64,000 bases of DNA from Blastocatellia bacterium (GCA_035575515.1 DATLXU010000067.1:6519-70518); one strand, 5' to 3'; shown: positions 6,999 to 52,146, numbered from the stretch's first letter. Notes: generated from the sequence alone by a model not told the origin. Numbers and translations are program-made.

Positions 6999-8159
6999 TC
7001 ACAAGATGAGCATCGCGTCGCCATAGCTGTAGAAACGATATTCATGCTCGACCGCGTGGCGGTATGCTTTCAGAATCAAATCCCGCCCGGCGAATGCTGA
7101 CACCAGCATCAAAAGCGACGAGCGCGGCAGGTGAAAATTGGTTATCAATCCGCTCAGCACCTGAAACTTGAAACCGGGATAAATAAAGAGGTCTGTCGTG
7201 CCTGCGCCGGGGGGCAGGGGTCGGTTGTCAGGATCAGATTCGGATAGCGCGTGGCTGGTACGGGAAGGAGATGAACTTGTTGATGTGATCTCCCGGTCCC
7301 CTGTCCCCTGCTCCCTGCTCCCTGCTCCCTGCCGACAGGCTGATTCAAGCGCGCGGGTTGTCGTCGTGCCGACGGCGATAACTCGTCGCCCTTCACCGAG
7401 CGCGCGATTGATTGAGCGCGCGGCCTCTTTGCCGATCGTGTACCTTTCAGGCTCGACGTGATGCTGTTCGACTTGCTCGACCCGAACAGGCTGAAACGTT
7501 CCGTAGCCGACGTGCAGAGTTATCTCAGCTATTTCGATCCCTTGCGCTCGCACGCGCTCAAGCAACTCAGGCGTGAAGTGCAATCCGGCGGTCGGGGCGG
7601 CGACGGCTCCGCGCTCGCGGGCGTAAACCGTTTGATAGCGCTCGGCGTCGAGCCGGTCCTCTTCGTCGCGCTTGATGTAGGGAGGAAGCGGCGTGCGGCC
7701 TATGCGGTCAATTATCTCGTCAAAGTCGCCTTCGCTTTCAAAGCGAACGATGCGGCGACCCATCTCGCGCCACTCGATTACTTCAGCCGTGAGCTTGCCG
7801 CGCGCGAACTCGATGCGCGCTCCCGGCAGCAATGATTTGCCGGGTCGCACCAGAGCTTCCCAAACTAAAGGCTCGATGCGCTGCACCAGAAAAACTTCGA
7901 CGCGCCCGCCTAAGACAGTCTCGCCTCGCGGAGTTTTTCTGAGCCTCCTGCCTATAAGCCGCGCGGGAAAGACTCGCGTGTTGTTGACGACGAGCAAATC
8001 GCCCGCTCTGAGATAATCGGGCAATTGTTCAAAGATTGAATCCGTCAGCGCGCCGCTTTTGCGATCAACAACGAGCAAGCGCGAGCGGTCGCGCCGCGCC
8101 GACGGTTCTTGCGCGATTAATCTTTCAGGAAGCTCGTAGTCGAAATCAGAGACCAGCAT
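6999..8159 (-). CDS. queA: S-adenosylmethionine:tRNA ribosyltransferase-isomerase QueA, with a lineage-specific low-complexity insertion
   Basis: The N-terminus MLVSDFDYELPERLIAQ and C-terminus IYPGFKFQ...TNFHLP are classical QueA. The longest ORF starts at 8210. Confidence 0.85.
   Translation of the reverse strand: MLVSDFDYELPERLIAQEPSARRDRSRLLVVDRKSGALTDSIFEQLPDYLRAGDLLVVNNTRVFPARLIGRRLRKTPRGETVLGGRVEVFLVQRIEPLVWEALVRPGKSLLPGARIEFARGKLTAEVIEWREMGRRIVRFESEGDFDEIIDRIGRTPLPPYIKRDEEDRLDAERYQTVYARERGAVAAPTAGLHFTPELLERVRAQGIEIAEITLHVGYGTFQPVRVEQVEQHHVEPERYTIGKEAARSINRALGEGRRVIAVGTTTTRALESACRQGAGSREQGTGDREITSTSSSPSRTSHALSESDPDNRPLPPGAGTTDLFIYPGFKFQVLSGLITNFHLPRSSLLMLVSAFAGRDLILKAYRHAVEHEYRFYSYGDAMLIL
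7291..7332. repeat. six tandem heptamers (TCCCGGT CCCCTGT CCCCTGC TCCCTGC x3) inside the queA coding sequence
   Basis: Seen directly. 42 nt is 14 codons, so it is frame-preserving. It encodes GAGSREQGTGDRE in QueA. The unit matches the CCCTGAC arms of the intergenic palindromic elements. Confidence 0.7.
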
Positions 8160-8206
8160 ACGTTGCGATGTGGCGACGCGGAGACGCAGCGGCACAGCGA
8201 AAATGA

Positions 8207-9169
8207 TCAAAGCTGGAGATTACCCTCTCGAATCTCCGTCCCTCCGCGTCCTTGCGCATCCGCGTCTTTTTCAACTACCTCCTCAACCGGCAACTCATCT
8301 GCGCTGCGATGAGGCGACTTATAAGATGCCTTCAAAAGATGATCGCGGTGAAGCAGCGCGGTGAATTGCGCGCCGAAAAGCAATATCACGCTCGACAGGT
8401 AAACCCACGACAGCAGAGCCACGCCCGCGCCAATCGAACCGTACAGCAAATCGTAATGGAAATATGGCAGCAAGGAAGCGAACCCGAACTTCGCGCCTTC
8501 CCACAGCACGCCCGCGATTGTCGCTCCCACGAGCGCCTCTGTAAGCACAACGCGCGTGTTGGGCAGAAACTTGTAGAGCACCGTAAACAAAATTATGGTG
8601 ACGGCAACGCTGATTATGATAAATATCACTTGCCACGCCAGCCCCGCGAGCCAGGCAAGCTCAGGCCCTAATTGCAGAGGCAGACGTTCTGCCGCAGCCC
8701 GCAATCCGGTTACAAGCGTCGTGAAGATAGCCGATGCGCCAAGCAGCGCCCAGACCAAAGTCATAACGGCCATGTTCACCGCGCGACCATGCAGAAAAGA
8801 GCGCGGCGACGTGCCCCACACGCGATTGAGCGCCTTCTCGATAACAGTGAACAACCACGAGGCAGCCCACAGCACGACTATCAAACAGCTAATTATTAAT
8901 CCCGTTGAGATGTTCGATATGGATTCGAGGTTCTTGCGAATGAAGCTTTGAGCGCCGGGCAGAAAGCCAAGAACTTGGCTCACGAGGTATCTTTCGACAG
9001 TTTGCGGCCCGAGCACATAGTTGCCGATGGTTATCAACAACAGCAGCATCGGAAACAACACCAACATCGAGAAATACGACGCGGCAGCGGCAGACGTAGT
9101 CAAATCGTTATCCATGAACGCAACGAAGCTGCGCGTGAGTATCTTTCGTTTGTGCATCTTCTCCGCCAT
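8207..9169 (-). CDS. yihY: YihY/BrkB (virulence factor BrkB / formerly RNase BN) family membrane protein
   Basis: A 6-TM protein with the characteristic N-terminus and SYFSMLVLFP plus Gly-rich helices. Confidence 0.7.
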   Translation of the reverse strand: MAEKMHKRKILTRSFVAFMDNDLTTSAAAASYFSMLVLFPMLLLLITIGNYVLGPQTVERYLVSQVLGFLPGAQSFIRKNLESISNISTGLIISCLIVVLWAASWLFTVIEKALNRVWGTSPRSFLHGRAVNMAVMTLVWALLGASAIFTTLVTGLRAAAERLPLQLGPELAWLAGLAWQVIFIIISVAVTIILFTVLYKFLPNTRVVLTEALVGATIAGVLWEGAKFGFASLLPYFHYDLLYGSIGAGVALLSWVYLSSVILLFGAQFTALLHRDHLLKASYKSPHRSADELPVEEVVEKDADAQGRGGTEIREGNLQL

Positions 9170-9246
9170 AGCACCGAGCGCCGTTTGCTCCTCCCATTGA
9201 ATTTTATGTGCCTACCAGTTGATTGGCAAAGCAACGATCGGGAATC

Positions 9247-9365
9247 GGAAGTCAGGGGCCAGATAGAAGGCGCAAGGCAACAGGCAGCCGCTTTAGCATG
9301 TTTTTTGCTCTCTGCCGTTTGCTGCTTTCCGCCTTCTATCTTCTTCTCACTGACCCCTGACTCCT
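9247..9365. repeat. heptamer-built imperfect palindrome (arms AGTCAGGGGCCAGATAGAAGGCG / CGCCTTCTATCTTCTTCTCACTGACCCCTGACTCC)
   Basis: Seen directly in the divergent region between yihY and the FAD oxidoreductase gene. Confidence 0.55.
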
Positions 9366-9387
9366 GCTGTGATACAATCGCGGCTGC

Positions 9388-13720: not shown

Positions 13721-13811
13721 GTGAATCGTAAATCGTAAATCGCGAATTGCAGTTGAGGGCAGGCGATTGCCGTTGTTTACAGCTTATTGCGATTCCCGAT
13801 TTATGATTTAC
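13721..13811. repeat. heptamer-built palindrome (GTGAATC GTAAATC GTAAATC GCGAATT ... GCGATTC CCGATTT ATGATTT AC)
   Basis: Seen directly between the lnt stop and the prfB start. Confidence 0.55.
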
Positions 13812-15631
13812 CGCTCATGCTCTCTTTTCGGCAGTATCGAAACAATCACAAGCGTGATGCTTAACACCGCGCACGCGACGGCAAACACGTCGCCGTAGCG
13901 CGTGTAAAAAGTCAAAGAGTCGCCTCGCGCTTCGTCAACCGTCTTTATATTCCACAGCCGCGTCGTCTGCTCGAACATCGGCGTTTCATCGCGCACGATG
14001 CCGTAGCGGTCTATGCGCGCCGACAGCCCTGAATTTGTCGAGCGTATCAACTCAACATTGTTTTCAACCGCGCGAAACACCGCGCACGCGAGCATCTGTC
14101 GCGGAGCCGCGCCCGGGCCGAACCACAGTTCGTTTGAAATCTGCACGAGCGCAGTCGCTCCTTCGAGGCGAAGCCTGCGCACGATGTCAGGTCTCGTGGC
14201 TTCAAAACAGATTGCTGTTCCCAGTCGCGCTCCCGCGACATCGCCAAGCGTGAAGCTCGCGCCCGGAGTGATGTCGGCTACGAGCGCAGGTATTTTGTCC
14301 ATGAAAGGAAGCCAACTGCGCGCGGGAACGTACTCTCCGAAAGGAACCAAAGCAATCTTATCATACTCAAAAATCTTCCGGCCATCGGGCGCAATCGCGA
14401 GCGCGCTGTTGTATCGCGCATCAATCGTGTCGTCTTTGGGGAAGCCCCAACTGTTCATCAACAGAAAAACATTATTGCTGCTTGTGAATTCTGAGATTGT
14501 GCGTTGCAACTCGAAATCGCGGTCGTATTCAAAATTCATCGGCGATTCGGGCCAGATGACCACATCAACTCCCGCGCGGCGAAGCTGGCCGCCTGTCGCA
14601 TTGGAATCGCTTATTGAACGCGCGCCGGCTTCTCCCGAAGCAGCCTGTTTGGCTTTGTCTTGAATAGCTCGATTCGACAGCGCGATGAAATCTTCCACTG
14701 TTACAGGCCCGACTTCTATCGGCACGTCCGGTTGAATGATTGCTACCGTGACAGACCCCGCTTCTTCCTTCTCCGGCCTGAGCGATTCGCCGTAGATGAC
14801 CGTCAGTATCGCTATCACGCCTGCAGCCGTCAGCACTATAATGCCGCGCCGCCGCTCAAGGTAGATGAGTGCGAAGACAAGCGCCGTGCTTGCCGCAACC
14901 ATGATTGCGCTGACAAGGTAAACGCCGCCCAGTCGCGCCACTTGAATCACCGCCGGTTGAAACGCTTGAGAGTAGCCGAGCGCGTTCCATCCCACGCCCG
15001 TGATTTCCAATCGCGCCCATTCGCTTGCAGCCCAAAGCACCGGCGCTGAAAGAATCGCCCATCCTCGAAATCGCTTTATCGCAAGAGCCAACGCTCCGGC
15101 AAACAATCCCGTGAAGATGCTGAGCGCCGATGCGAACACAGTCGTGATTACATAAGAAAGCCACAACGGTATCTCGCCATAGTTGTGCATCGAATGCGTG
15201 ACCCAGTAGGATGAGCCTACATAAAAGATTGTGCCCGCGACGTAGCCCAACAGCAGCGAGCGCCAGAATCTCTGCTCGCGCACGACGGCCATAATCAGCG
15301 GAGCGGTGCATACCCAGCCTAATGACCACCAGTTCCATTCCGGAAACGCAAAGACGAGCAGCAGCCCTGAAAAGATCGCCAGCAGCAGGTTGCTTATGAA
15401 TGGCGGCGAGGCGCTCTGGTAGGGAATGACTTTCGACACGCGAAAGCGGGCGGCCAGCAAATCCTCGTGCGCGTAAACGGGCGGCGCGGCTTCTTCTTGA
15501 TGCTGAACACAGCAGTGTGAATGATGAACAAAGGAGGAAAAACCCTGAAAGGTAAACGCAGGCCGGATTATGTTGAGCAAAGCATTACGCACAGAATCAT
15601 TTTTATCACATCTTGATTCATCATTCATCAT
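13808..15631 (-). CDS. lnt: apolipoprotein N-acyltransferase
   Basis: N-terminal polytopic membrane domain plus C-terminal nitrilase-type CN-hydrolase domain (VVIWPES, ICFE). The first ~64 residues of the longest ORF are non-membrane. A GTG at 15439 gives a typical 544-aa Lnt. Confidence 0.8.
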   Translation of the reverse strand: MMNDESRCDKNDSVRNALLNIIRPAFTFQGFSSFVHHSHCCVQHQEEAAPPVYAHEDLLAARFRVSKVIPYQSASPPFISNLLLAIFSGLLLVFAFPEWNWWSLGWVCTAPLIMAVVREQRFWRSLLLGYVAGTIFYVGSSYWVTHSMHNYGEIPLWLSYVITTVFASALSIFTGLFAGALALAIKRFRGWAILSAPVLWAASEWARLEITGVGWNALGYSQAFQPAVIQVARLGGVYLVSAIMVAASTALVFALIYLERRRGIIVLTAAGVIAILTVIYGESLRPEKEEAGSVTVAIIQPDVPIEVGPVTVEDFIALSNRAIQDKAKQAASGEAGARSISDSNATGGQLRRAGVDVVIWPESPMNFEYDRDFELQRTISEFTSSNNVFLLMNSWGFPKDDTIDARYNSALAIAPDGRKIFEYDKIALVPFGEYVPARSWLPFMDKIPALVADITPGASFTLGDVAGARLGTAICFEATRPDIVRRLRLEGATALVQISNELWFGPGAAPRQMLACAVFRAVENNVELIRSTNSGLSARIDRYGIVRDETPMFEQTTRLWNIKTVDEARGDSLTFYTRYGDVFAVACAVLSITLVIVSILPKREHER

Positions 15632-16537
15632 TCAGCGTTCAGCGTTCGCCTCATCATGCACCATTTCAGCCATAAATGAGCTGCGCACGAGCGGGCCTGA
15701 GAAGACCGCGCGGAAGCCTAGCCGCTCGCCCCACTCGCGGTACTCGTCGAACACACGGGGATGAACGTACTCTTCAACAGGCAGATGGCGGCGCGTGGGC
15801 TGTAGGTACTGGCCTATGGTCACAACATCAACTTCGTGCGCGCGAAGGTCTTCGAGCAATGCGCGCACCTCGTCACGCGTTTCGCCAAGCCCGACCATGA
15901 ATCCTGATTTCGTAAGCACTCGCGGCGCATAACGTCGCGCGTTGAGCAGCACGTCCAGCGATTGTTGATAGTCGGCCTGCGGGCGCACGCGGCGATATAA
16001 GCGCGGCACAGTCTCTACGTTATGATTAAAAGTATCTGGCGCTGCATCCAGCACCATGCGAAGCGCAGCCTCGTCGCCTTTGAAATCAGGCGTGAGCACT
16101 TCAATCTTCGCCTGCGGCAAACGGCGGCGCACGGCCTGAATCGTCTTTGCAAAATGAGTCGCGCCGCCGTCCGTAAGCTCATCGCGATTAACCGAGGTGA
16201 TTACGACGTAGCGGAGATTCAATTGAGCCGCAGCTTCTGCTACCTGCTCAGGCTCGGCGGCGAGCGACTCTATTGGCAGCCCGCGACCTGTTTTGACGGA
16301 GCAGAATCCGCAACTGCGCGAGCAGATGTCGCCTAAGATCATGAAAGTCGCCGCGCCGCGCGCGAAGCAATCATTGCGATTCGGGCAGCGAGCTTCTTCG
16401 CACACGGTGTGAAGCCCGCGAGTGCGAAGCATCTTTTTAATATTGTGATCGGCTTCGACGTTTCGCTTCGGCTTGCGAAGCCACTCAGGGAGTCGCGGCC
16501 CTGCTTTCGGTTGGAGTCCTTCGAGTTGAATCAGCAT
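15632..16537 (-). CDS. lipA: lipoyl synthase
   Basis: CEEARCPNRNDC and radical-SAM CGFCSV cysteine motifs, with overall LipA collinearity. Confidence 0.9.
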   Translation of the reverse strand: MLIQLEGLQPKAGPRLPEWLRKPKRNVEADHNIKKMLRTRGLHTVCEEARCPNRNDCFARGAATFMILGDICSRSCGFCSVKTGRGLPIESLAAEPEQVAEAAAQLNLRYVVITSVNRDELTDGGATHFAKTIQAVRRRLPQAKIEVLTPDFKGDEAALRMVLDAAPDTFNHNVETVPRLYRRVRPQADYQQSLDVLLNARRYAPRVLTKSGFMVGLGETRDEVRALLEDLRAHEVDVVTIGQYLQPTRRHLPVEEYVHPRVFDEYREWGERLGFRAVFSGPLVRSSFMAEMVHDEANAER

Positions 16538-16680
16538 CTTGTCAGGGGTTAGGGGTCAGGGGTCGGTGATCGGTTGAGAGATTGGCCGTTGCCTTGAAAA
16601 TGGCTCTGGGAGCCTGTTTCAAGGATAACTATTATTCTTTCAACTGACCACCGATTACTGGCCGCTGACCACTAATTCTG
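16538..16680. repeat. heptamer-built imperfect palindrome (GTCAGGG GTTAGGG GTCAGGG GTCGGTG ... TGACCAC CGATTAC TGGCCGC TGACCAC)
   Basis: Seen directly between the SPOR-gene stop and the lipA start. Confidence 0.55.
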
Positions 16681-17079: not shown

Positions 17080-17086
17080 ATCTCAG

Positions 17087-17168
17087 GTTTCTAGTTTTTA
17101 GTTTCTGGTTCATCTGCTAGTTTCAACGGCTCGCTGCTTTTTGCGAAGCAAACCAGAAACTAGAAACC
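17087..17168. repeat. heptamer-built palindrome (GGTTTCT AGTTTTT AGTTTCT GGTT ... AACCAGA AACTAGA AACC)
   Basis: Seen directly between the SPFH stop and the SPOR start. Confidence 0.55.
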
Positions 17169-17172
17169 ATTA

Positions 17173-21994: not shown

Positions 21995-22081
21995 TGCATT
22001 TCAGATTTTGGATTGCCGGAGCCAGTTGCTACTAAGCCGAAACTCCAGAGCTTTGCCTCAATCTAAAATCCAAAATCTAAT
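21995..22081. repeat. heptamer-built palindrome (TTCAGATTTTGGATT ... AATCTAAAATCCAAAATCTAA)
   Basis: Seen directly after the rbfA stop. Same sequence family as the element at 52040-52146. Confidence 0.55.
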
Positions 22082-22103
22082 TGCGCCGTAGCCTTTTGAA
22101 GTT

Positions 22104-23706: not shown

Positions 23707-23790
23707 GCAGTTGCCAGTTGTCAGTGCTCAGTTGTCAGTATCCAATGCACATTTCAACTCACAACCGAGCACTGGCAACCGACAACTGCT
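23706..23790. repeat. heptamer-built palindrome / bidirectional terminator (GCAGTTG CCAGTTG TCAGTGC TCAGTTG ... GAGCACT GGCAACC GACAACT)
   Basis: Seen directly between convergent genes. Confidence 0.55.
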
Positions 23791-26952: not shown

Positions 26953-28056
26953 TTGCGCACGGCATATTCGAGTCACGCAATGGCAGACGAAACTAAAGAT
27001 AAATCAACGAGCGAGACGGAGAACAAATCGCGCGATGTTGAGCAAACGGAATCAGCTCAACCAAACAAATCATCTAGCGATGCGGATAAAGCTCAAGAAA
27101 TCGCATCTCGCGCCGATTCAAATGAAACAATAGGGGCCGATGTGCCTGAAAAAGCGAAGCCGCTTCCGCCCGAAGCCGGTTCGGTTTCGCCCGCCGATGA
27201 GATTGAGTCGAAAGCCAAAGTCTCGCTGCCTCCTGAAGAAAAGCTCAAGACCGAAGCGAAGGACGAAGCCGCGCTGCCCGGCGTTGAAAAGCCTTCGCTG
27301 ACTCCGACAGTCGAGGGCGCGTCGGAAAAGGGCGAGCCTGCGGCCCCTGAGAAAGTTGAGCCAAGTGCGCCCGAAGCGGGCGCGCCAGCGCCGAAACCAA
27401 CGCCGCCGCGAGCGCCCGCTGCCGGAAAGCCCGCTCCCCCGAAAGCGGCTCCCGCTGCCGGTCACAAGCCAGCCGCCCCGCCGCGCAAAGGGCCGGAGAT
27501 TACGACCGAAATCACAGGCGACCCGTTTATTGATAGAATCAAGCAGCGCTTCGGTGACGCTATCACGGAAGCAGTCGCGACGCTCGGCCAGCAGATTCTT
27601 CGCGTGAAGAAAGACGCTTACCTTGAGCTTTGCCGCTACTTGCGCGATGACGAAGAGTTCCCTTTCGATATGTGCACGGACCTGACGGCGATTCACTGGC
27701 CCGAGCGCGCGGGACAGGAGTTCGATGTTGTCTTGTTGCTTTATTCAGTGGCGAAGAATCGTCGCCTGCGCGTCAAGGTCGGGCTTGCAGACGGCGATGC
27801 GTGTCCGAGCGTCACTTCAATATGGGAAGGCGCGAACTGGATGGAGCGCGAAGTCTTCGACATGTTCGGCGTTAAATTCGACGGCCATCCTGACCTGCGG
27901 CGGATACTGCTGCCGGAGGACTGGCCCGGCCATCCGCTTCGCAAAGAGTATCCGATTGAGTATCGCGACAACGAATGGACAGACAAGCACCTTGAGTACC
28001 GCGAGATTGATTACGACACGAGCTTGATTGATGTGAAGTACGCGGAACGGAGATAG
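26953..28056 (+). CDS. nuoC: NADH-quinone oxidoreductase subunit C with ~170-aa Pro/Ala/Glu/Lys-rich N-terminal extension
   Basis: The C-terminal 190 aa are canonical NuoC (ELCRYLRDDEEFPFDMCTDLTAIHWP...EREVFDMFGVKFDGHPDLRRILLPEDW). The N-terminus is low complexity. Confidence 0.85.
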   Translation: MRTAYSSHAMADETKDKSTSETENKSRDVEQTESAQPNKSSSDADKAQEIASRADSNETIGADVPEKAKPLPPEAGSVSPADEIESKAKVSLPPEEKLKTEAKDEAALPGVEKPSLTPTVEGASEKGEPAAPEKVEPSAPEAGAPAPKPTPPRAPAAGKPAPPKAAPAAGHKPAAPPRKGPEITTEITGDPFIDRIKQRFGDAITEAVATLGQQILRVKKDAYLELCRYLRDDEEFPFDMCTDLTAIHWPERAGQEFDVVLLLYSVAKNRRLRVKVGLADGDACPSVTSIWEGANWMEREVFDMFGVKFDGHPDLRRILLPEDWPGHPLRKEYPIEYRDNEWTDKHLEYREIDYDTSLIDVKYAERR

Positions 28057-28057
28057 T

Positions 28058-30665: not shown

Positions 30666-30671
30666 CAATTA

Positions 30672-30710
30672 TTCGATTTGAGATTTAAGATTTAAAATCT
30701 CAAGACAGGT
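30672..30710. repeat. short heptamer palindrome (GATTTGA GATTTAA GATTTAA AATCTCA)
   Basis: Seen directly in the nuoH-nuoI spacer. Confidence 0.45.
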
Positions 30711-30715
30711 GATTT

Positions 30716-31261: not shown

Positions 31262-31378
31262 GAGCTAGGGGCCAGGGGGCTAGGGGCTGGGAGTCAGTGG
31301 ATTTGAGATTTGAGATTTCAAATTTGAAATTCATCCGACCCTGACCCCCGGCCCCCAACCCCTGACCCCGTGCCGGAG
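31262..31378. repeat. heptamer-built palindrome (GCTAGGG GCCAGGG GGCTAGG GGCTGGG AGTCAGT ... CCTGACC CCCGGCC CCCAACC CCTGACC CC)
   Basis: Seen directly in the nuoI-nuoJ spacer. The loop contains GATTTGA GATTTGA GATTTCA heptamers. Confidence 0.6.
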
Positions 31379-31382
31379 GCAC

Positions 31383-31979
31383 ATGCAACTACACGGGTGG
31401 GAAGCAATCCTGTTTTACGCGCTAGCCATCATGACTTTGTTCATGGCGGTCTTCGTCGTGACGGCGCGCGTTGCGGTTCACTCGGCGCTCTTTTTGATCT
31501 CGACGCTTGTCAACGTCGCGCTGCTGTTCATATTGCTGCGCGCCGAGTTCGTTGCGGGCGTTCAGATACTCGTTTACGTCGGCGGCGTGATGGTGCTGTT
31601 TTTATTTGTCATCATGCTCGTTCAGACTCGCGCCGAAGAGGAAGCGCGCGTGCGGCTCTACACGGGTCAGACGTGGCCTGCGGTGATAATCGCGCTGCTG
31701 CTTGCCGTCGCGTTTTATTTTGCGATGAACCCTGCGCAATCGGCTTTTCGCCCGGCTGAAGTCGCAGCAGCAACCGCCACTCAAGCGCCGCCTGAAACGG
31801 GCGAGCGCGTTCAAGCGGGCGCGGGCCAGAACATCTCCAGAGACACGCAGACCGTCGGCCACGCGCTCTACACCGACGCGGCTCTGCCTTTTGAAGTCGC
31901 GTCCTTGCTGCTGCTCGTTGCAATGATAGGCGCGGTGCTGTTGGCGCGCGGAACGAAGCAAGAGAAATATTATGAGTAA
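31383..31979 (+). CDS. nuoJ: NADH-quinone oxidoreductase subunit J
   Basis: TM pattern and the [20 protein letters not shown] motif. Confidence 0.85.
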
Positions 31980-31996
31980 TAACTGAGGGGGACGTT

Positions 31997-32440
31997 GTGA
32001 ATAGCTTACTGATGGGCGCATTAGCCTACGCCGCTCCGCTGCTCTTGCAGGCCCAGCAGCAACAATCGGCCCTGAAACGATTCGAGCCTACGCTCATCAA
32101 CTTTTTGATGTTGAGCTTTCTGCTTTTCGTCGTCGGCGTAGCGGGCGTGCTGTCGCGACGCAACATCATCATCATCTTCATGTCAATCGAGCTGATACTG
32201 AACGCGGTCAATCTGAACCTGATTGCGTTCTCGCGCTACTTGCAACTCAACGAGCAGTCGCTCAACGCTCAGTTTCAAGCTTCAGGCGTCACGGTGAACC
32301 CGCTGGCCGGGCCTGTCTTTACTGTCTTCATAATCGTCGTCGCAGCAGCAGAAGCAGCCGTAGGTCTTGGCATCGTCATAGCAATGTTCCGCAATCGCGA
32401 AACGGTCGCGATTGACGAGATTGATATGTTGAAGTGGTAA
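31997..32440 (+). CDS. nuoK: NADH-quinone oxidoreductase subunit K (extended)
   Basis: The [22 protein letters not shown] motif is NuoK. Extra N-terminal and internal segments make it 147 aa against ~100 aa. Confidence 0.8.
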
Positions 32441-32528
32441 TCATTTGTCATTGGTCATTTGTCCCTTGTCCTTTGTTTATTCTTTAAGGACAAGCGAGCA
32501 AATGACCAATGACAAGTGACCAATGACA
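32441..32528. repeat. heptamer-built palindrome (TCATTTG TCATTGG TCATTTG TCCCTTG TCCTTTG ... ACAAGCG AGCAAAT GACCAAT GACAAGT GACCAAT GACAAAT)
   Basis: Seen directly in the nuoK-nuoL spacer. The right arm overlaps the annotated nuoL ATG at 32516. Confidence 0.6.
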
Positions 32529-34951
32529 AATTTATGTTAAAACTCGTCTGGCTCATTCCGGTCTTTCCGCTTCTCGGCTTTCTAGTCAATTTTATTCTCG
32601 GTCGCAGCCTGAGGCTGTCGGAGCGCGCAGTTTCAATCATCGGATGCGGCGTGATACTCGCCTCGCTCCTGCTCACGCTCGGAGCCTTTTACGATTATGC
32701 TGCGAACTACGCGCCTGCGAACAACCACAAGCCATACATCTCAACTCAGTTCACGTGGCTGCCCGGCGGCAAAGCGCACAAGACGCTTGTGCCGGAGACA
32801 GCCGAGCATGCACAGGCTGGCGAACGCGGCGAGTCAGACCATAACAAATCAGCAGGCTCGCGGCTCTCGGATTTCAACATCACATGGAGTTATCAAATAG
32901 ACCCGCTCTCGCTCGTGATGATGTTCATTGTCACGTTCGTGGGCTTCTGGATTCACGTCTTCGCCACCGGCTACATGCACGGCGACACGGGCTTCTATCG
33001 CTTCTTCGCTTACCTCAACCTGTTCATGTTCATGATGCTGTTGCTCGTGATGGCGTCGAACTTCATGGTCATGTTCATCGGGTGGGAGGGCGTGGGCCTG
33101 TGCTCGTACCTGCTCATCGGTTATTACTTCGACAGGCAGGAAGCTGGCGACGCATCAAAGAAAGCATTTGTCGTCAACCGTATTGGCGACGCCGGAATGG
33201 TCCTGGCCATATCGGGCATCTTCGCAGCGTTCGGAACACTTGAATTCAGCGAAGTCGCGCAGGCCGTCAGTTCCATTGGAGTCGAACAACTCTGGCAGTT
33301 CGGATTGATGTCGTGGCTTGCGTTAGGACTCTTCATCGGCGCGACGGGCAAGAGCGCGCAGATACCGCTCTACATCTGGCTGCCCGACGCGATGGCCGGC
33401 CCGACTCCCGTTTCGGCTCTGATTCACGCGGCGACGATGGTGACGGCGGGCGTCTTTATGGTCGTGCGGACGAACTTCATCTTTCAACGCTCGGTCACGA
33501 TGATGATGATAGTTGCGCTCGTCGGACTTCTCACCGCATTCATCGCTGCGACCATCGGCATCACACAGACGGACATCAAGAAGGTTCTCGCTTATTCGAC
33601 CGTCTCGCAACTTGGCTATATGTTTTTGGCTTGCGGCGTGGGCGCGTTCGTCGCCGGAATCTTTCACGTATTCACTCACGCATTCTTCAAAGCCCTTCTC
33701 TTTTTAGGCTCAGGCTCGGTCATTCACGCGATGCACCATGAACAGGAGATGCCGCGAATGGGCGGCTTGGCGAAATATCTGCCGACGACTTATAAGGCGA
33801 TGATGATGGGATGGCTTGCCATCTGCGGCATCATCCCGTTTGCGGGCTTCTGGTCGAAAGACGAGATACTGTGGAAGACCTTTGACACTCAAATCTTCGG
33901 TGGCGGAAAGCTGCTGTGGTTTTTCGGATTCGTCACAGCCGGAATGACTGCGTTTTACATGACTCGATTGATGGGGCTGACCTTCTGGGGCGAAGAGCGA
34001 TTTCGCAAAGTTCACGCCGGAGGCGAAGCCGACGAAGCGCACGCAGCGGCGCACGATAAAGAACTCAAGCCGCACGATGCAATCACCGCTTCGGCAGGTG
34101 ATCGGCCTCATCACGCGCCCGGCGAGCACGTAGGCGCGCACGACGCAACTGACCGACTGAATGCTCACGGCATCGCTCACGCGCATTACGAGCCGCACGA
34201 ATCGCCGCGCAACATGACATTGCCGTTGGTCGTGCTCGCGTTCTTTTCAGTAGTCGCGGGACTCGTAGGCATACCGGCGGCGCTATCGGGCGGCGCGAAC
34301 ATAAATCTGTTCGAGCGATGGCTTGAGCCTGTCGTCCAAGAAGTGCACAGCGAACCGGCAACAGCGAACGAAGCCTCAGAACCGGCTCCGGGAGCCGGTT
34401 CTGAGGCAGCGGCAGAAGCTGGCGGCGCGCACGGCGAAGGCTCGCATCCGGTTGATCCGATGGAGTACGTCCTGATGCTCGCTTCGCTCGGCATCGCAGC
34501 GGGCGGCATCTATCTCGGACGATTGTTCTACGTGAAGCGGCCTGACCTGCCGCGCATCTGGGCCGAAAAGCTTCGCCCGCTCTACACGCTCAGTTTCAAC
34601 AAATGGTATTGGGATTGGCTGCTCGACGTGAAGGGAGTCGAGGCGGCTAAAGCCGTCAACAACGCGCTGTGGTCGGTTGACGCTGAAGTGGTTGACGGCG
34701 GCGTGAACGGCGCGGGATGGTTCGCGCGATTCTGGGCGAAGGTCACAGGTTGGTGGGACAAGTGGGTTATTGATCTTGCGGTGAACGCGACCGGATGGAT
34801 AACGCGCGCAGGCTCGATCATCCTGCGCAGTTTTCAGACGGGCTTCTGGCAGAACTACGCGCTGCTGTTCGCCATCGGGCTGTTTATTCTTCTGGCTGTG
34901 TATGTGTACTCGGCTGTGCCGATTACGCTCAAAGGACTTTTCGGGAAATAG
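32516..34951 (+). CDS. nuoL: NADH-quinone oxidoreductase subunit L with large His-rich insertions
   Basis: Antiporter-like NuoL core (WLPDAMAGPTPVSALIHAATMVTAGV). 811 aa against ~620-650 aa in typical NuoL. The true start may be MLKLVWLIPVFPLLGF at 32534. Confidence 0.85.
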   Translation: MTNDKFMLKLVWLIPVFPLLGFLVNFILGRSLRLSERAVSIIGCGVILASLLLTLGAFYDYAANYAPANNHKPYISTQFTWLPGGKAHKTLVPETAEHAQAGERGESDHNKSAGSRLSDFNITWSYQIDPLSLVMMFIVTFVGFWIHVFATGYMHGDTGFYRFFAYLNLFMFMMLLLVMASNFMVMFIGWEGVGLCSYLLIGYYFDRQEAGDASKKAFVVNRIGDAGMVLAISGIFAAFGTLEFSEVAQAVSSIGVEQLWQFGLMSWLALGLFIGATGKSAQIPLYIWLPDAMAGPTPVSALIHAATMVTAGVFMVVRTNFIFQRSVTMMMIVALVGLLTAFIAATIGITQTDIKKVLAYSTVSQLGYMFLACGVGAFVAGIFHVFTHAFFKALLFLGSGSVIHAMHHEQEMPRMGGLAKYLPTTYKAMMMGWLAICGIIPFAGFWSKDEILWKTFDTQIFGGGKLLWFFGFVTAGMTAFYMTRLMGLTFWGEERFRKVHAGGEADEAHAAAHDKELKPHDAITASAGDRPHHAPGEHVGAHDATDRLNAHGIAHAHYEPHESPRNMTLPLVVLAFFSVVAGLVGIPAALSGGANINLFERWLEPVVQEVHSEPATANEASEPAPGAGSEAAAEAGGAHGEGSHPVDPMEYVLMLASLGIAAGGIYLGRLFYVKRPDLPRIWAEKLRPLYTLSFNKWYWDWLLDVKGVEAAKAVNNALWSVDAEVVDGGVNGAGWFARFWAKVTGWWDKWVIDLAVNATGWITRAGSIILRSFQTGFWQNYALLFAIGLFILLAVYVYSAVPITLKGLFGK

Positions 34952-35109
34952 ATTGTAGGGGGCGGGTCTCGACCCGCTGCGCGGGTTCCCCGGCCCGAAT
35001 CGCGCATTAATCAAATTGGCCGATGGCAAATCTATCTCATTGCCTTCGGCAATCCGGGCAGGGACAAGCCCCGCCCCTACAGGTCGGTTAATCAAAGGAG
35101 ACTCTGGCT

Positions 35110-36960
35110 ATGCCTGGTCGCATGGAGATTTTTGGAATCGGCATTCTGTCGTGGGTGACGTGGTTACCGGCGGCTGGCGGGTTGATGCTGCTCTTTTTCA
35201 ATCGCGCTAAAAACGACCGCATCCGCTGGTTTGCAAACCTCTGGATCGTGCTCTGCTTCTTGGTTTCAATCCCGCTCGTCACAGGACTTGGCGCGGGGCG
35301 TCCCGGTTATGACCGCGCTTACGGCGGATTGCAATTCATCGAAGACCACGAATGGATACCGCTAATCGGCGCGCGTTATCAATTAGGCATTGATGGTCTC
35401 GCGCTCGTGCTCTTGATGCTGACGACGCTTTTGGGAGTCGTGTCGGTCATCTGCTCGTGGGACTACATCCGCGAGAAGGGGCGCGAGAAAGAGTATTACA
35501 TCATGCTGCTGCTGTTGCAGACGGGCATGATCGGCGCGTTCGTGTCGGCTGATCTCTTTCTGTTCTTCATCTTCTGGGAAGTAATGCTCGTGCCGATGTA
35601 TTTTTTAATCGGCATCTGGGGCGGCAAGAACCGGCTCTATTCCGCAATCAAGTTTTTCCTTTACACCCTTGTCGGCTCGGTCGTGATGCTGCTTGCGGTA
35701 TTGAAGCTCTACTTCATTTTTCCCGAAGTCGTGCAGAAGCGCGCGCCTGATGTTTTGGCAACAGCGGAACAGATCACGGCGAGCAGCGTGACCGATCCTT
35801 CGCGAGCAGGCCAGCGCAACGAGCAGATGTTCAAGATGATTGACGATGCGATGAAGCGCGCCGAAGGCATTGACCCCGCTGACCCCGAAGGCAAGCGCGC
35901 GCTGCCATCAAGTTATGTCCGCAGCTCGTTCAACATCCCTGCGCTCACAGCTATCGGTCCGCACATAAAAACCGTATTCGGCCTGAGCGTAGTCATCTGG
36001 CTGTTCATAGGCTTTTCGCTTTCGTTCGCAATAAAAGTTCCGATGTTTCCATTTCACACGTGGCTGCCGGATGCGCACTACGACGCGCCGACGGCTGGCT
36101 CTGTGATTCTTGCGGGCGTGCTGCTCAAGATGGGAACGTATGGCTTCATGCGATTTTCGCTTCCGATGTTTCCCGATGCGGCGACTCATCCGCGAGTCCG
36201 TCAGGTGATGATAGTGCTTGCGATTATCGGCATCATCTACGGCGCGCTCGTGGCGATGGCGCAAAAGGATGTTAAGAAGCTCGTCGCTTACTCGTCGGTC
36301 TCGCATCTTGGATTTGTGATGCTTGGCTTGTTCGCCCTTAACCCGAACGGCATCAACGGCGCGGTGATGCAGATGATTAATCACGGCATCTCAACGGGCG
36401 CGCTCTTTATGCTTGCAGGCATCCTCTACGAGCGGCGGCATACGTACGATATTGCCGAGTTCGGCGGGCTTGCGCACGTGATGCCGATCTACTCGACGAT
36501 ATTTTTAATCGTCACGCTGTCGTCTTTAGGCTTGCCGTTGATGAATAATTTCATCGGCGAGTTTCTGACGATTCGAGGCGCATTTGAAGCGAACCCCTAC
36601 TGGGGCGGCTTCGCCGTCATCGGGATCATTCTCGGCGCGGCCTATATGCTGTGGCTGTATCAACGAGTCTTCTTCGGGCAGGTGACGAAGGAAGAGAATC
36701 GCGGGTTGCGCGATTTGAACGCGCGCGAGGCATGGCAGTTCGCGCCGCTGATTTTCCTGATCTTCTGGATCGGCGTTTACCCGAAGCCCGTGCTTTCCTA
36801 CATCAACCCGCAGACTGAGGTAGTCGTCGCGCAGGTGCAGCCTGATTACTTCAAGAACGCGCCCGCTGCCCAGCGGCCTCAGATGGCGAAAGAAGAGCCT
36901 GCGGCGAACGAAGCCGCTCCGGCTCACGTTGAAATCGAAGAGCCGGAAGAGAGCAAGTAA
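35110..36960 (+). CDS. nuoM: NADH-quinone oxidoreductase subunit M with ~80-aa insertion
   Basis: NuoM core (WLPDAHYDAPTAGSVILAGVLLKMG). Inserted hydrophilic segment around 35700-35950. Confidence 0.85.
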   Translation: MPGRMEIFGIGILSWVTWLPAAGGLMLLFFNRAKNDRIRWFANLWIVLCFLVSIPLVTGLGAGRPGYDRAYGGLQFIEDHEWIPLIGARYQLGIDGLALVLLMLTTLLGVVSVICSWDYIREKGREKEYYIMLLLLQTGMIGAFVSADLFLFFIFWEVMLVPMYFLIGIWGGKNRLYSAIKFFLYTLVGSVVMLLAVLKLYFIFPEVVQKRAPDVLATAEQITASSVTDPSRAGQRNEQMFKMIDDAMKRAEGIDPADPEGKRALPSSYVRSSFNIPALTAIGPHIKTVFGLSVVIWLFIGFSLSFAIKVPMFPFHTWLPDAHYDAPTAGSVILAGVLLKMGTYGFMRFSLPMFPDAATHPRVRQVMIVLAIIGIIYGALVAMAQKDVKKLVAYSSVSHLGFVMLGLFALNPNGINGAVMQMINHGISTGALFMLAGILYERRHTYDIAEFGGLAHVMPIYSTIFLIVTLSSLGLPLMNNFIGEFLTIRGAFEANPYWGGFAVIGIILGAAYMLWLYQRVFFGQVTKEENRGLRDLNAREAWQFAPLIFLIFWIGVYPKPVLSYINPQTEVVVAQVQPDYFKNAPAAQRPQMAKEEPAANEAAPAHVEIEEPEESK

Positions 36961-37058
36961 TTTGACGTGGCGCCGCCGTCTCGGCGGCAGTTGCGTGAGC
37001 GAGACGCTCACTAGACAGCCAGCTAGAAGCTGGCGCTACCATTGGCACGACAAAAAGT

Positions 37059-38711
37059 ATGCTGCTACTACAAGCACCACCTGATTTTCTGAATCTCGCG
37101 CGACAGGCTGCGCAATACATAATGCCTGAAGCTATCCTGACGCTATTCGCCTGCGCCGCGCTCGTGTTGGATGTCATGCTGCCGCGCAATCAGAAGCGTA
37201 TAGTCGCGTGGGTGAGCCTCGCGGGCGTTGGCTTTGCCCTTGCTTCGCTTGGCATTCTTTATTTCAACTTCGTCAGCCGCAGCGGGTCGAGCACGGCTTT
37301 CTACAACATGATCGTGCTCGATAATTATGCTGTCGTCTTCAAGCTGATCTTCCTCATCGGCGCGGCGCTTTCGATATTGCTCTCGATTCGCTACCTCGAA
37401 GAAGAAGGCGAGCAGCGCGGCGAATACTACGGGCTGATACTGTTTTCCGTAGTCGGCATGATGTTTATGGCATCAGGCGTTGACCTGCTGATGTTGTTCA
37501 TCTCGCTCGAACTGATGGCCATCTCGATTTACATACTGGTCGGCTATCTTCGACGCGACAGAAAATCAAACGAAGCCTCGATGAAGTATTTTCTGCTCGG
37601 CGCGTTCTCATCTGGTGTGTTGCTGTACGGCATCTCGCTCGTCTATGGAATTACGGGCACGACCAACCTTGAACAGATTGCGAACGCGCTGCCGAAAGTG
37701 ATCTCAGGACTCAACGCGCTCAACCCTCAAGCCGCTGCGCCCGATATGCGGTACATGCTTATGATAGGCATGACGCTTATGGCCGCAGGGATGTTCTTCA
37801 AGGTTGCAGCGGTGCCGTTTCACATGTGGGCGCCCGACGCTTACGAAGGCGCACCTACTTCCACTACAGCTTTCATGTCGGTCGCGGTCAAGGCCGCGAG
37901 CTTTGCGATGTTCGGACGAATATTTTTGTATGGACTGCCCGGATTAAGAAGCGGCATCACGGGCACGCCATCGCTTCCGGGATGGGCCACGCTGTTGGGA
38001 GTGATTGCAGCAATAACGATTGTCTGGGGGAATCTCGCCGCGATCACTCAACAAAACACCAAGCGGCTGCTCGCTTATTCATCAATCTCACACGCGGGCT
38101 ACACGCTGCTCGGTTTGATTGCCGGAAACGAAACCGGCTACACAGGGTTCATCGTCTATCTGCTCATCTACACGATAATGAATCTCGGCGTGTTCGGCTG
38201 CATCATCGCGCTGCGCCGTCGAGGCATCATCGGCGACCGCATGGAAGATTTGAATGGCTTGATGCGCAAAGCGCCGTGGCTAACGGTGATGATGACGATT
38301 TTCCTGCTCTCGCTCGGCGGCATACCTCCGACAGCAGGCTTCATCGGAAAGTTCTATCTGTTTGCTGGTCTGATTCAAACCGGCAACGTCTGGATGGTGC
38401 GGCTTGCGGTGCTTGCAGTCTTGATGAGCGCGGTGTCGCTTTATTATTACATCCGATTCATCCGCGCGATGTACATCGAACCTGAATCGGAGCCGCAGCC
38501 GGTCAGGCTCGCCGCCCCGCTTTACGTCGCGCTCGGAGTTGCCACAGTCCTTGTGCTCTACATAGGCATATTTCCGCAGCGCGCGATTGATTTGACGAAG
38601 CGGGCGGGAGCGGTCCTCGTCGAACAACAGAACAAAGCAGAGCAGAACAAGACAAGGCAAAGCGGGCCTGGCGTACCGCAGGATGTTTCCGAGATGACTC
38701 CCTCGCCGTAA
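37059..38711 (+). CDS. nuoN: NADH-quinone oxidoreductase subunit N
   Basis: NuoN core (FHMWAPDAYEGAPTSTTAFMSVAVKAASFA). Confidence 0.85.
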   Translation: MLLLQAPPDFLNLARQAAQYIMPEAILTLFACAALVLDVMLPRNQKRIVAWVSLAGVGFALASLGILYFNFVSRSGSSTAFYNMIVLDNYAVVFKLIFLIGAALSILLSIRYLEEEGEQRGEYYGLILFSVVGMMFMASGVDLLMLFISLELMAISIYILVGYLRRDRKSNEASMKYFLLGAFSSGVLLYGISLVYGITGTTNLEQIANALPKVISGLNALNPQAAAPDMRYMLMIGMTLMAAGMFFKVAAVPFHMWAPDAYEGAPTSTTAFMSVAVKAASFAMFGRIFLYGLPGLRSGITGTPSLPGWATLLGVIAAITIVWGNLAAITQQNTKRLLAYSSISHAGYTLLGLIAGNETGYTGFIVYLLIYTIMNLGVFGCIIALRRRGIIGDRMEDLNGLMRKAPWLTVMMTIFLLSLGGIPPTAGFIGKFYLFAGLIQTGNVWMVRLAVLAVLMSAVSLYYYIRFIRAMYIEPESEPQPVRLAAPLYVALGVATVLVLYIGIFPQRAIDLTKRAGAVLVEQQNKAEQNKTRQSGPGVPQDVSEMTPSP

Positions 38712-39799: not shown

Positions 39800-39875
39800 C
39801 CATGTCCTGGGTGCCGGGGATCAATTCCTCATGACCTCTCCCTGACACCCGGCATCTGACACCTGATGTCGAGAG
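39800..39875. repeat. heptamer-built imperfect palindrome (CATGTCC TGGGTGC CGGGGAT ... TGACACC CGGCATC TGACACC TGATGTC)
   Basis: Seen directly in the spacer before thrB. Confidence 0.45.
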
Positions 39876-39878
39876 CGG

Positions 39879-50579: not shown

Positions 50580-50586
50580 GAAAATT

Positions 50587-50697
50587 AGCAGGCAGCAGGC
50601 AGCAGGCAGCAGGCAGTTAAGGGGTTATAGTGGATGCTATATTTTTTCAAAAGGTTCATAGCTATTGAAGTTCTGTTCCTCACTGCCTACTGCCTAT
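50587..50697. repeat. heptamer-built palindrome ((CAGCAGG)x4 ... CCTCACTGCCTACTGCCT)
   Basis: Seen directly between the two FtsX genes. Confidence 0.5.
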
Positions 50698-51983
50698 TAT
50701 TCAGTCCTCAGCGCCTCGATAGGGTCCAATCGGCCTGCGCGCCGCGCCGGATAGATTCCGAAAAAGACTCCGATGATCGTGCAGAGCACAAACGCAAGCA
50801 GCGGAGCCCACACCGGAAATGACGACGGCAGCGGCGTGTAGGTCGCAAGCAGCCACGATATGCCATAAGCTACGGCCACTCCGCCCACGCCGCCCGCGCA
50901 GCATAACACGACCGACTCAACAAGAAATTGCTTGACCACGTCCTGTTGCCGCGCGCCTACGGCTTTGCGTATCCCTATCTCGCGCGTGCGCTCGACCACA
51001 GAGACGAGCATGATGTTCATAATCACGATGCCGCCGACGACGAGCGATATGCCAACGACGAATAAAGAGACGGAAAAAATAATGCTCGTCAGACTGTTGA
51101 ACAGATCGTTCACGCCTTCTGATGTAATCGTCCCGAAATCGTCTTCTTCGTTGTAATTCAATTTGTGCCGCGTGCGCATGATGAGCCGCGCCTGATCCTG
51201 CGCCTGCTGCATCTGGCCTTCGCGCGCTTTGATCGAGATGTTGACCGTGCGACGCGAGCCGTAGATTTTTTGAAAAGTCGAGATCGGTATTCGCACGAAG
51301 TTGTCGCGCGAAAACCCCAGCACCGTCCCTTTCTTTTCCGCCACGCCGATGATCGTGTACGTGTGGTCGCCAATCTGGATTGATTTGCCGATGGGGTCAA
51401 CCGTCGGGAAGAGCTTTTCGGCGATGTCCCATCCGACAAATGTCACGAAGCGCGAATGCTCGTCTTCCCAATCGAGCAGCACGCGGCCCATCGCTACGTC
51501 ATAAGGCTCGATTGAAAGAATATTCGGCGTGATGCCCGAAAGGTCAACCTGCTCAAGCGTCTGGTTGCCCGCGCGGACATTGACTATCCTGTGCGTCTCG
51601 ACTCCAACGGCTTCGCAGGCCGCGCACTGGCTGCGAATCGCGTCGCCGTCTTCAGCGTGAACGTCGGGGTTGCGGCGAATCGCTTCGTAGAGCTTGTCGA
51701 AGTTTGTGATTATTGGATACTGCGTGATGACGAAAGTGTTCGGCCCGAAGTTAGAAACTTTCGCCTTCCAGTATTTATCTAAACCTTGAATGATCGAGAT
51801 GACGGCGATGATAGAAGCGATGCCGATGATTATCCCTAGGAGCGTCAGAAACGAGCGCAGCTTGTTTGCGCGCAGCGAATCCAGTGCGACGCCGAGATAA
51901 TCGAAGAAGCGAGCGTGCCGCCCGCCTTCGTCTTGAGTTGCGTTTTTTCTTCTATCAATCTGTGGGGCTGAAATTGTTGCCAT
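50697..51983 (-). CDS. ABC transporter permease, FtsX/MacB type (paralogue of the downstream gene)
   Basis: Same architecture, with VVERTREIGIRKAVGA. Confidence 0.85.
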   Translation of the reverse strand: MATISAPQIDRRKNATQDEGGRHARFFDYLGVALDSLRANKLRSFLTLLGIIIGIASIIAVISIIQGLDKYWKAKVSNFGPNTFVITQYPIITNFDKLYEAIRRNPDVHAEDGDAIRSQCAACEAVGVETHRIVNVRAGNQTLEQVDLSGITPNILSIEPYDVAMGRVLLDWEDEHSRFVTFVGWDIAEKLFPTVDPIGKSIQIGDHTYTIIGVAEKKGTVLGFSRDNFVRIPISTFQKIYGSRRTVNISIKAREGQMQQAQDQARLIMRTRHKLNYNEEDDFGTITSEGVNDLFNSLTSIIFSVSLFVVGISLVVGGIVIMNIMLVSVVERTREIGIRKAVGARQQDVVKQFLVESVVLCCAGGVGGVAVAYGISWLLATYTPLPSSFPVWAPLLAFVLCTIIGVFFGIYPARRAGRLDPIEALRTE

Positions 51984-52039
51984 ACCGCCGCTCTATTCAA
52001 GTTATAGCTGCTGCCTGTGACGGGGTCAATCATTATCAT

Positions 52040-52146
52040 CTTGGATTTTAGATTTTGGATTTACGACTGTCTGAAGCCGTTTCCCGAAGTCGTCCGGGGC
52101 TTGTGCTCTGTTAATCCAAAATCCGAAATCTAAAATCCAAAATCGA
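52040..52146. repeat. heptamer-built palindrome (CTTGGAT TTTAGAT TTTGGAT TT ... AATCCAA AATCCGA AATCTAA AATCCAA AATCG)
   Basis: Seen directly upstream of the FtsX pair. Same family as 21995-22081. Confidence 0.55.

Follow-up and report, generated by a model that had tools for sequence, protein, structure and literature searches.

The 64,000-nt stretch analyzed here (hereafter, the window) derives from a Blastocatellia bacterium assembly (GCA_035575515.1, DATLXU010000067.1:6519-70518) and carries, between its genes and in one case within a gene (queA), a series of hairpins whose arms are tandem arrays of 7-nt units. The window has a G+C content of 55%, is 90% coding (6,292 bases are non-coding), and comprises ~60 genes of housekeeping character, including a nuoCDHIJKLMN operon of the 11-subunit type at window positions 26953-38711. 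The encoded NuoH is identical to that of a metagenome-assembled genome (MAG; GCA_037024535.1), a contig of which matches the window with 99.97% identity across 12 kb. The next species-level relatives have NuoH sequences that are 66-85% identical, and nearly all of these relatives are labelled Blastocatellia or Acidobacteriota.

Several independent measures identified a period of 7 nt in the non-coding DNA of the window. Tandem Repeats Finder reported period 7 in 21 of 44 rows, and the lag-7 self-identity of non-coding DNA was 0.310, compared to 0.25-0.28 for the remaining lags and 0.253 for coding DNA. A detector fixed at ≥11 of 14 lag-7 matches, with low-complexity runs excluded, returned 27 period-7 arrays, compared to 1.36 ± 1.0 (maximum 4) across 50 local shuffles; periods of 5, 6, 8, 9, and 10 yielded 3, 11, 4, 9, and 4 arrays, respectively. 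The period-7 autocorrelation that a preliminary description of the window had put forward as a check was thus borne out, as was, within the window, an enrichment over shuffled sequence. That description termed the periodicity strict; the period is real, but the arms are imperfect tandem repeats and the adjective is an overstatement.

Although non-coding DNA makes up only 10% of the window, 22 of the 27 arrays were intergenic or at an intergenic edge. Inverted-repeat searches and folding revealed a common layout, in which a left array is followed, after a spacer of 17-75 nt, by a complementary right array. The resulting hairpins have stems of 20-35 bp, long loops, and fold z-scores down to -11. 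A scan of the window against Rfam yielded 0 matches at the gathering score. The period-7 hairpin architecture is real and non-random.

The gaps within the nuo operon are nearly filled by such hairpins, which begin 1-10 nt past a stop codon and finish 2-13 nt before the next start, and four nuo junctions of the window are occupied by heptamer elements. The nuoC/nuoD hairpin (28058-28146; GTCAGRR/CCCTGAC; z -7) begins 2 nt past the stop codon and finishes ~8 nt before the nuoD ATG, while the nuoK/nuoL hairpin (32441-32531; GTCATTT/AAATGAC; z -8.1) begins at the base after the stop and finishes 2 nt before the nuoL ATG. The nuoI/nuoJ element (31257-31369; z -6.2) is nested, with outer arrays of (GCTAGGG)x4.4 and (CCGACCC)x5.1 and inner arms of (GATTTGA)x4.6, and the nuoI stop codon (31259) lies inside its first unit. 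The small nuoH/nuoI element (30672-30703) comprises (GATTTRA)x3 and a short complementary arm of ~1.5 units; it is missing in most relatives and was considered a partial member.

Other features of the operon and its surroundings were noted in passing. The genes nuoE, nuoF, and nuoG are not present between nuoD and nuoH. Several open reading frames (ORFs), as called, exceed the NCBIfam profile lengths (NuoC, 367 aa; NuoH, 451 aa; NuoK, 147 aa; NuoL, 811 aa; NuoM, 616 aa), and some of their starts may have been placed too far upstream; NuoL has 805 aa in the MAG annotation. ORF callers conflict on starts beside the hairpins, both for nuoD (372 versus 377 aa) and for nuoL (32516 versus 32534). 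The MAG contig (JBAIGN010001223.1, 26.2 kb) ends at window position 31262, which is the coordinate listed for the nuoI/nuoJ element in the preliminary description and falls a few bases into the first array of that element.

Elsewhere in the window, the hairpins occupy a variety of contexts. One lies between a gene for a prfB-like release factor and lnt, both on the minus strand (13724-13811; left arm (AATCGTA)x2.7, right arm CGATTCC CGATTTA TGATTTA). Another lies upstream of lipA (minus strand), with a SPOR-domain gene on its other side (16541-16671; -75.9 kcal/mol, z -8.9), and its 5' arm begins with (GTCAGGG)x3.4 before drifting to other units. A GTTTCTA/TAGAAAC hairpin at 17086-17169 has 19-nt arms that are 89% complementary, a GATTTTG/CAAAATC hairpin (21995-22085) separates rbfA from a DHH phosphoesterase gene, and a CAGTTGN/CAACTG hairpin with 33-nt arms (23707-23789; 85% complementary, z -11) is situated between convergent genes. 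The element between two macB/ftsX-type permease genes (50587-50696) pairs a perfect (AGCAGGC)x4.3 left array with a right array of (ACTGCCT)x2.1, and a GATTTTR/YAAAATC hairpin with arms of 25-27 nt (52038-52147; 81-92% complementary) occupies the divergent spacer at 51984-52272. A second divergent spacer (9170-9387), between a brkB-like gene and a DAO oxidoreductase gene, contains a strong, long hairpin at 9250-9362 in which heptamers (GTCAGGG/CCCTGAC) are confined to the outer 1-2 units; its inner stem is non-periodic, and lag-7 identity is 0.46.

The preliminary description had assigned one architecture to 14 loci. Ten of these clearly share it and have complementary arms. Another three are partial examples or have decayed, namely the loci listed at 9247 and 30672, described above, and the 6-unit array at 7291 within queA, which has a decayed partner (fold z -1.9). 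The remaining locus (39800-39878) is not supported as a member, given its weak periodicity (best lag-7 score 10/14) and fold z of -1.1. A further member, located between lipA and lnt (15502-15647; right arm (TTCATCA)x2.7 (TTCAGCG)x2.4, left arm complementary), had been missed. The genomic contexts ascribed to the elements were correct, as they are found between co-directional genes (the nuo operon), between convergent genes (23707), in both divergent spacers, and inside a coding sequence (queA).

Some structured sequences of the window are of other kinds. Two amidohydrolase genes are separated by a near-perfect 27-bp hairpin (57987-58061; 96% complementary) whose arms repeat every 9 nt (CGCCAAGAA-like). 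The A/C-rich arm of this hairpin comes first, a polarity opposite to that of the heptamer hairpins (see below), and the palindrome is periodic but of another kind. The nuoL/nuoM (34952-35109) and nuoM/nuoN (36961-37058) gaps, and that between an AMP-binding (acyl-CoA synthetase-like) gene and a cupin gene (53836-53971), contain strong multi-hairpin folds that are GC-rich and non-periodic (z -3.6 to -4.2). Structure in spacers seems to be a general feature of the genome.

The distribution of the elements was evaluated by running the same detector on 21-kb regions surrounding nuoH in 47 other Blastocatellia genomes, with orthologous nuo junctions defined by tblastn. Further comparison loci were from Nitrospirota/Thermodesulfovibrionia and from soil metagenome contigs fetched via queA. 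Comparison loci are designated by numbers preceded by L. The MAG contig (L001) and seven other loci, drawn from Logan read assemblies and from additional MAGs of the study that yielded this one, form a set of eight near-identical assemblies of one population (≥99.85% identity). Long hairpins were defined by an ungapped arm of ≥16 nt with ≥80% complementarity and were termed periodic if the lag-7 identity of the arm was ≥0.7.

Period 7 stood out over periods 4-12 in most of the 47 Blastocatellia loci, with up to 19 arrays per locus, and period-7 arrays were also detected in some Nitrospirota/Thermodesulfovibrionia loci and in soil metagenome contigs. Inside nuo operons, 147 of 167 arrays (88%) had a complementary partner ≤160 nt away, and 98 of the 190 long hairpins had period-7 arms. 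The elements are therefore not confined to the window. They had also been proposed to be a genome-specific family, which is contradicted by the presence of the architecture in most of the 47 related genomes, in some Nitrospirota, and in soil contigs, as well as by published equivalents (PMC2670836, PMC4692102). Among the Nitrospirota loci, heptamer-armed hairpins with units such as GTTGTTA/TAACAAC and CAGCTGT were noted in L049 (Nitrospirae MAG JACRHB010000103.1), L053, and L058, and one soil contig (Ga0193747_1000001; L081) carries four heptamer-armed elements inside 13 kb.

Orthologous junctions retain hairpins while the units that comprise them turn over. Of 40 genomes compared at the nuoK/nuoL junction, 31 carry a period-7 array there and 34 a strong fold. 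The arrays at this single junction represent at least 10 unit families, including GTCATTT in the window and GTCCTGA, GTGATNC, GGGTTCN, GTTTTCA, GTCCTTT, AGTCCTT, GTGATGA, GTGACAA, and CAGCGGT elsewhere, and GC-rich stems without periodicity are found in L007, L034, and L047. The remaining nuo junctions are occupied in 5-22 of ~43 genomes, with presence or absence varying by genome; gain and loss are therefore frequent. Three close relatives (L032, L033, and L036; nuoI 90-93% identical) differ in copy number, some elements show deletions, and lost elements leave arm remnants; one element apparently grew symmetrically from its center. In the whole data set, 228 arrays comprised 95 distinct units. 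The consensus among units, as determined by rotation expectation-maximization, is weak, consisting of approximately one A in a G/T-rich background (2.98 bits versus 2.71 ± 0.10 for a composition-matched null). At the nuoH/nuoI junction, palindromes of another type were observed in L004 (2010-2235), L028 (11345-11578), and L041 (4220-4385). These are nearly perfect, non-periodic, and ~160-190 nt long, those of L004 and L028 have CATTAACACCCAACTTCAGTTGGGTG... in common, and they look like a separate, possibly mobile, element.

The two arms of a hairpin are closely matched to one another. Where bases of the 5' arm depart from the array consensus, their partners in the 3' arm are complementary to the variant at 122 sites, compared to 74 at which they fit the consensus. 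Moreover, arm complementarity drops from 0.90 to 0.73 once the native register is broken by a 7-nt shift of one arm. These observations indicate that the arms are mirror copies rather than two independent arrays. At the nuoK/nuoL junction, the spacer is flipped between two related genomes, L037 (3280-3401) and L039 (3123-3245), while the arms are kept, with 20 of 25 center positions matching as the reverse complement. Such an inversion is the outcome expected from recombination between arms.

The element within queA (7209-7336, minus strand) reads, in the sense direction, (AGCAGGG)x4 GACAGGG GACCGGG, followed by a spacer and a degenerate C-rich partner (ATCCTGACAACCGACCCCTGCCCCCC). The array is in frame, and the predicted protein (Pfam Queuosine_synth, 1.4e-133) has an insertion of ~45 residues in a surface loop between TTTTRALESA and DLFIYPGF. 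The equivalent loop is encoded by (GATGGGG)x4 ... (CCCTAAC)x4 in L074 (420-1526) and by a longer purine-rich/pyrimidine-rich quasi-palindrome in L073 (4210-5376), while L075 (6001-7065) has almost nothing there. Since this loop varies among relatives, from other units to almost nothing, the insertion in the protein is a by-product of the DNA element. Neither a terminator nor an operon-specific function can explain these cases.

Selection on the sense transcript would be expected to favor G-U over A-C mismatches, and no such bias was detected. Of 66 nuo-operon hairpins, 28 had the more stable fold in the sense orientation and 38 in the antisense orientation, and G-U pairs numbered 123 and 136, respectively, arguing against selection for RNA structure in the sense orientation. 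Collectively, the mirroring of arms, the flipped spacer, the lack of sense/antisense bias, and the in-frame queA element point to a process that operates at the level of DNA.

The arms differ in composition. Whichever strand is read, G/T-rich sequence makes up the 5' arm and A/C-rich sequence the 3' arm. This polarity held for adjacent inverted array pairs (72:7), for arrays with a partner (135:12), and for periodic hairpins (89:7), and the few periodic hairpins in the Nitrospirota-group and soil contigs have the same lean (16:4). Non-periodic hairpins of the same loci were distributed 29:44, and the polarity is therefore a property of heptamer hairpins rather than a general stem-loop constraint. 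Stop codons in the 5' arm and start codons in the 3' arm were as frequent as expected from composition, with neither an enrichment of the former nor a depletion of the latter. The strictness of the polarity favors some strand-specific reader or writer of the arms.

Units are shared preferentially within genomes. An exact unit is common to 8.5% of same-genome site pairs and to 2.1% of pairs between genomes (permutation p < 0.0005), which upholds the earlier statement that unit families recur. In L002, for example, GTCCTGA and GTGCTGA variants are found at three junctions in differing order and with unrelated loops, and AGTCCTT is found at four sites in L029. An all-against-all comparison of the 14 window elements revealed similarity limited to 12-24 nt of arm, with every loop unique. 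Alignable sequence common to the elements is lacking, and the single covariance model proposed in the preliminary description would therefore describe no more than a hairpin. Sharing of units without sharing of loops argues for some copying of arms from one locus to another, or for a bias specific to the genome, and against whole-element transposition.

Intergenic heptamer repeats have been recognized since 1990, and those of cyanobacteria, termed STRR (short tandemly repeated repetitive) elements, are reportedly covered by Mazel in 1990 and Vioque in 1997. STRR also occur inside a structural gene, in the P12 helix of the RNase P RNA, which parallels the queA case in the window. The unit TTGGTCA (32441-32476) presumably matches a classical STRR unit. 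Like the window elements, STRR consist of 7-bp tandem units, with several families per genome, are intergenic (including within operons), and can form hairpins; they differ in that the window belongs to an acidobacterial host with 55% G+C, its type of array is paired in 88% of cases, and its units are far more diverse. STRR in the strict sense are those of heterocystous cyanobacteria, and the window hairpins are here assigned to the broader heptamer-repeat phenomenon. A 200-kb sample of the Nostoc plasmid pCC7120alpha contained few arrays and no pairs, too few for a comparison and from a plasmid rather than the chromosome. Hairpins formed by 7-bp STRR separate hupS from hupL in filamentous cyanobacteria and are present at other sites too; a 2009 paper called their function unknown and noted proposals of roles in transcript stability or translational coupling (PMC2670836).

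Two further systems are comparable. Xanthomonas genomes carry 70-75 paired sites of GGGAATC arrays that are ‘always’ convergent (Rehm et al., 2015; PMC4692102), which we read as the same polarity with the G-rich arm first. Of these sites, 83% keep their gene context between species while length varies and the pair or single type is preserved (PMC4692102). These are also intergenic pairs of heptamer arrays, but they have one dominant G-rich unit with G-quadruplex potential, whereas the window elements and those of relatives have dozens of units. Since many of these lack G runs (e.g., GATTTTG, GTCATTT, and GTTTCTA), G-quadruplexes cannot be a general explanation. The same work cites a report that the simple repeats of many bacteria are enriched in heptamers (Mrazek, 2007), along with the idea of polymerase slippage for heptamers (PMC4692102). 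TAACTGA direct repeats occur in Beggiatoaceae, some Cyanobacteria, and Bacteroidetes, and in Beggiatoaceae they sit just upstream of start codons (MacGregor, 2015; PMC4679880). The resemblance lies in the single-strand RNA-binding reader that has been proposed for these repeats; the difference is that they comprise one unit that is nearly always in direct orientation (one indirect among 170 sets), while the window type consists of inverted pairs of diverse units. No description of heptamer hairpins in Acidobacteria was found in the literature searched.

Other classes of intergenic element were rejected. Rho-independent terminators are likewise stem-loops downstream of genes, but their stems are 5-12 bp and the window elements have longer stems and loops, lack a T tract, and occupy most junctions of one operon and one coding sequence in frame. 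A terminator scan of the window returned 29 sites, compared to 24.7 ± 3.8 expected (no enrichment), and flagged no stem of a heptamer hairpin; two weaker sites (13749-13771 and 13758-13771) fall inside the loop of the 13724-13811 element. Repetitive extragenic palindromic (REP) sequences, bacterial interspersed mosaic elements (BIMEs), and REP doublets forming hairpins (REPINs), which are associated with REP-associated tyrosine transposases (RAYTs), are short extragenic palindromes that can also lie in operons. REPINs comprise two inverted arms and a spacer, and their families are homogeneous within a genome while differing between genomes (Bertels and Rainey, 2011; PMC3116915). However, REP sequences have a conserved 20-40 nt, hundreds of near-identical copies, and no 7-nt period, whereas only units recur among the window elements, with loops and arm composition that vary by site; no 20-40-nt palindrome is common to those in the 64 kb examined, and units number 95. 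The preliminary description was thus right to separate the elements from ordinary Rho-independent terminators and from classical REP sequences. It also suggested a mobile or expanding element resembling a miniature inverted-repeat transposable element (MITE). Expansion is in keeping with arrays that grow, shrink, and are remodeled in place. Likeness to a MITE is not, given the unique loops, the 95 units, and the turnover of units at orthologous sites, and comparisons of filled and empty sites showed no clean insertion with a target-site duplication.

We therefore favor, at slightly better than even probability, the interpretation that, in Blastocatellia (Acidobacteriota), the elements represent the type of intergenic heptanucleotide-repeat hairpin known as STRR in heterocystous cyanobacteria and as convergent GGGAATC pairs in Xanthomonas, and that they evolve by in-place slippage combined with symmetrization of the arms at the DNA level. 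Under this model, arrays would arise and change size in place through slipped-strand replication, which would favor 7-nt units in many bacteria, while arms would be kept as mirror images by arm-to-arm events such as template switching (quasipalindrome correction) or recombination between arms. Units may at times spread among the hairpins of one genome via ectopic conversion or a similar process. Hairpins would persist where they are tolerated, namely in intercistronic gaps, at 3' ends, in divergent spacers, and in permissive protein loops. In transcripts, the hairpin would probably have a secondary role as an intercistronic structure, in mRNA 3'-end protection or translational coupling, rather than as a terminator.

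Several points weigh against this interpretation. Slippage alone leaves the G/T-rich 5' arm unaccounted for (89/96 periodic hairpins, versus 29:44 among non-periodic hairpins), and the recurrence of units in the same genome calls for inter-locus copying, which is here postulated. The role of the hairpins in RNA is suggested by their position only. No indels were detected in the elements across the eight near-identical assemblies; hypermutability like that of phase-variable repeats is therefore not a property of the arrays, and the elements are stable over short times. Since the polarity and the within-genome sharing of units stay unexplained by slippage and arm symmetrization, a strand-specific reader or writer retains a modest probability. 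A more specific proposal is that the polarity is the footprint of a dedicated process, which would either write G/T-rich 7-nt arrays and copy them by folding back or read them strand-specifically, such that a single machine would act across several phyla and the hairpins would not be passive products of slippage. This proposal draws on the polarity in Blastocatellia and the ‘always convergent’ description of Xanthomonas (PMC4692102), and we consider it quite unlikely.

Mobile DNA resembling REPINs or MITEs is an alternative that would directly account for the sharing of units among sites of one genome (8.5% versus 2.1%). A few palindrome families per genome would be copied into hairpin-prone intergenic sites by a trans-acting RAYT or IS200-like single-strand transposase and would replace old occupants. 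One family does occupy 3-4 junctions in L002 and L029, presence or absence at junctions varies between genomes, nested or composite elements exist (31257-31369 and L008), one element sits in a coding loop (queA), and the MAG contig breaks at an element. However, copies are alike in their arms alone and their loops are all unique, conserved termini or a conserved core are lacking among the 95 units, and the interleaved units in the arms of L008 fit array evolution better than nested insertion. Moreover, close relatives differ by gradual in-place change, and a transposase supplies no reason for a 7-nt period. Screening of the ~60 genes of the 64-kb window revealed no transposase, RAYT (Y1 transposase), or cold-shock gene. 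We consider this origin improbable.

The strict polarity, which is specific to heptamer hairpins (89:7 versus 29:44; 135:12) and renders the arms non-equivalent, would instead be explained if the G/U-rich 5' arm were a row of sites with a 7-nt footprint for a single-strand RNA- or DNA-binding protein of the cold-shock-domain or S1 type, which would compete with the hairpin and thereby adjust read-through, stability, or next-cistron translation. A binding array for a repeat-reading protein had been the other suggestion of the preliminary description. The placement of nuo-operon elements 1-10 nt past stops and 2-13 nt before starts is compatible with such a role. Cold-shock proteins, S1, or CsrA have been proposed as binders of TAACTGA heptamers, with CspB covering one heptamer per protein (PMC4679880), and heptamer repeats of Nostoc were reported to be regulatory with an unknown partner postulated (preprint, 10.1101/2022.06.06.494920). 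Yet the unit consensus barely exceeds its composition-matched null, stop and start codon content of the units follows composition, the hairpins lack sense/antisense asymmetry, elements also lie inside queA and in divergent spacers, and no candidate protein is known; a binding array is therefore a doubtful explanation. The same nuo junctions could be taken to reflect selected RNA structures, in which hairpins would serve as intercistronic mRNA stabilizers, processing sites, attenuators, or translational-coupling devices and periodicity would be the cheapest mutational route to a long stem. This would fit a nuoK/nuoL hairpin that is kept in 34 of 40 genomes irrespective of sequence, including as non-periodic GC-rich stems (L007, L034, and L047), and a 3' arm that adjoins the nuoL start codon and leaves no room for a free ribosome-binding site; the same functions were suggested for cyanobacterial STRR hairpins (PMC2670836). 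It is at odds with the lack of a G-U excess over A-C mismatches in the sense transcript, with elements that lie inside a coding sequence or in divergent promoter regions, with a polarity rule that is absent from other hairpins, and with the lack of an intrinsic-terminator signature. Selection for RNA structure thus also appears unlikely as the origin of the elements.

The finding is an acidobacterial member of a known, mechanistically unsolved class rather than a new, genome-specific mobile element. It adds the Acidobacteriota (class Blastocatellia), and probably some Nitrospirota, to the cyanobacteria, Xanthomonas, Beggiatoaceae, and a few Bacteroidetes among which heptamer repeats were described. 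In practical terms, the elements appear to break short-read assemblies, and gene callers conflict on the start codons that adjoin them. For the class as a whole, the Blastocatellia provide dense comparative material, in that dozens of genomes have hairpins at the same operon junctions but with different units. The polarity, the mirroring of arms, the inversion of spacers, the sharing of units without loops, the tolerance of protein loops, and the lack of an RNA-sense signature are constraints that any mechanism must accommodate. If a dedicated process were responsible, the heptamer hairpins of several phyla would share one undiscovered molecular machine.

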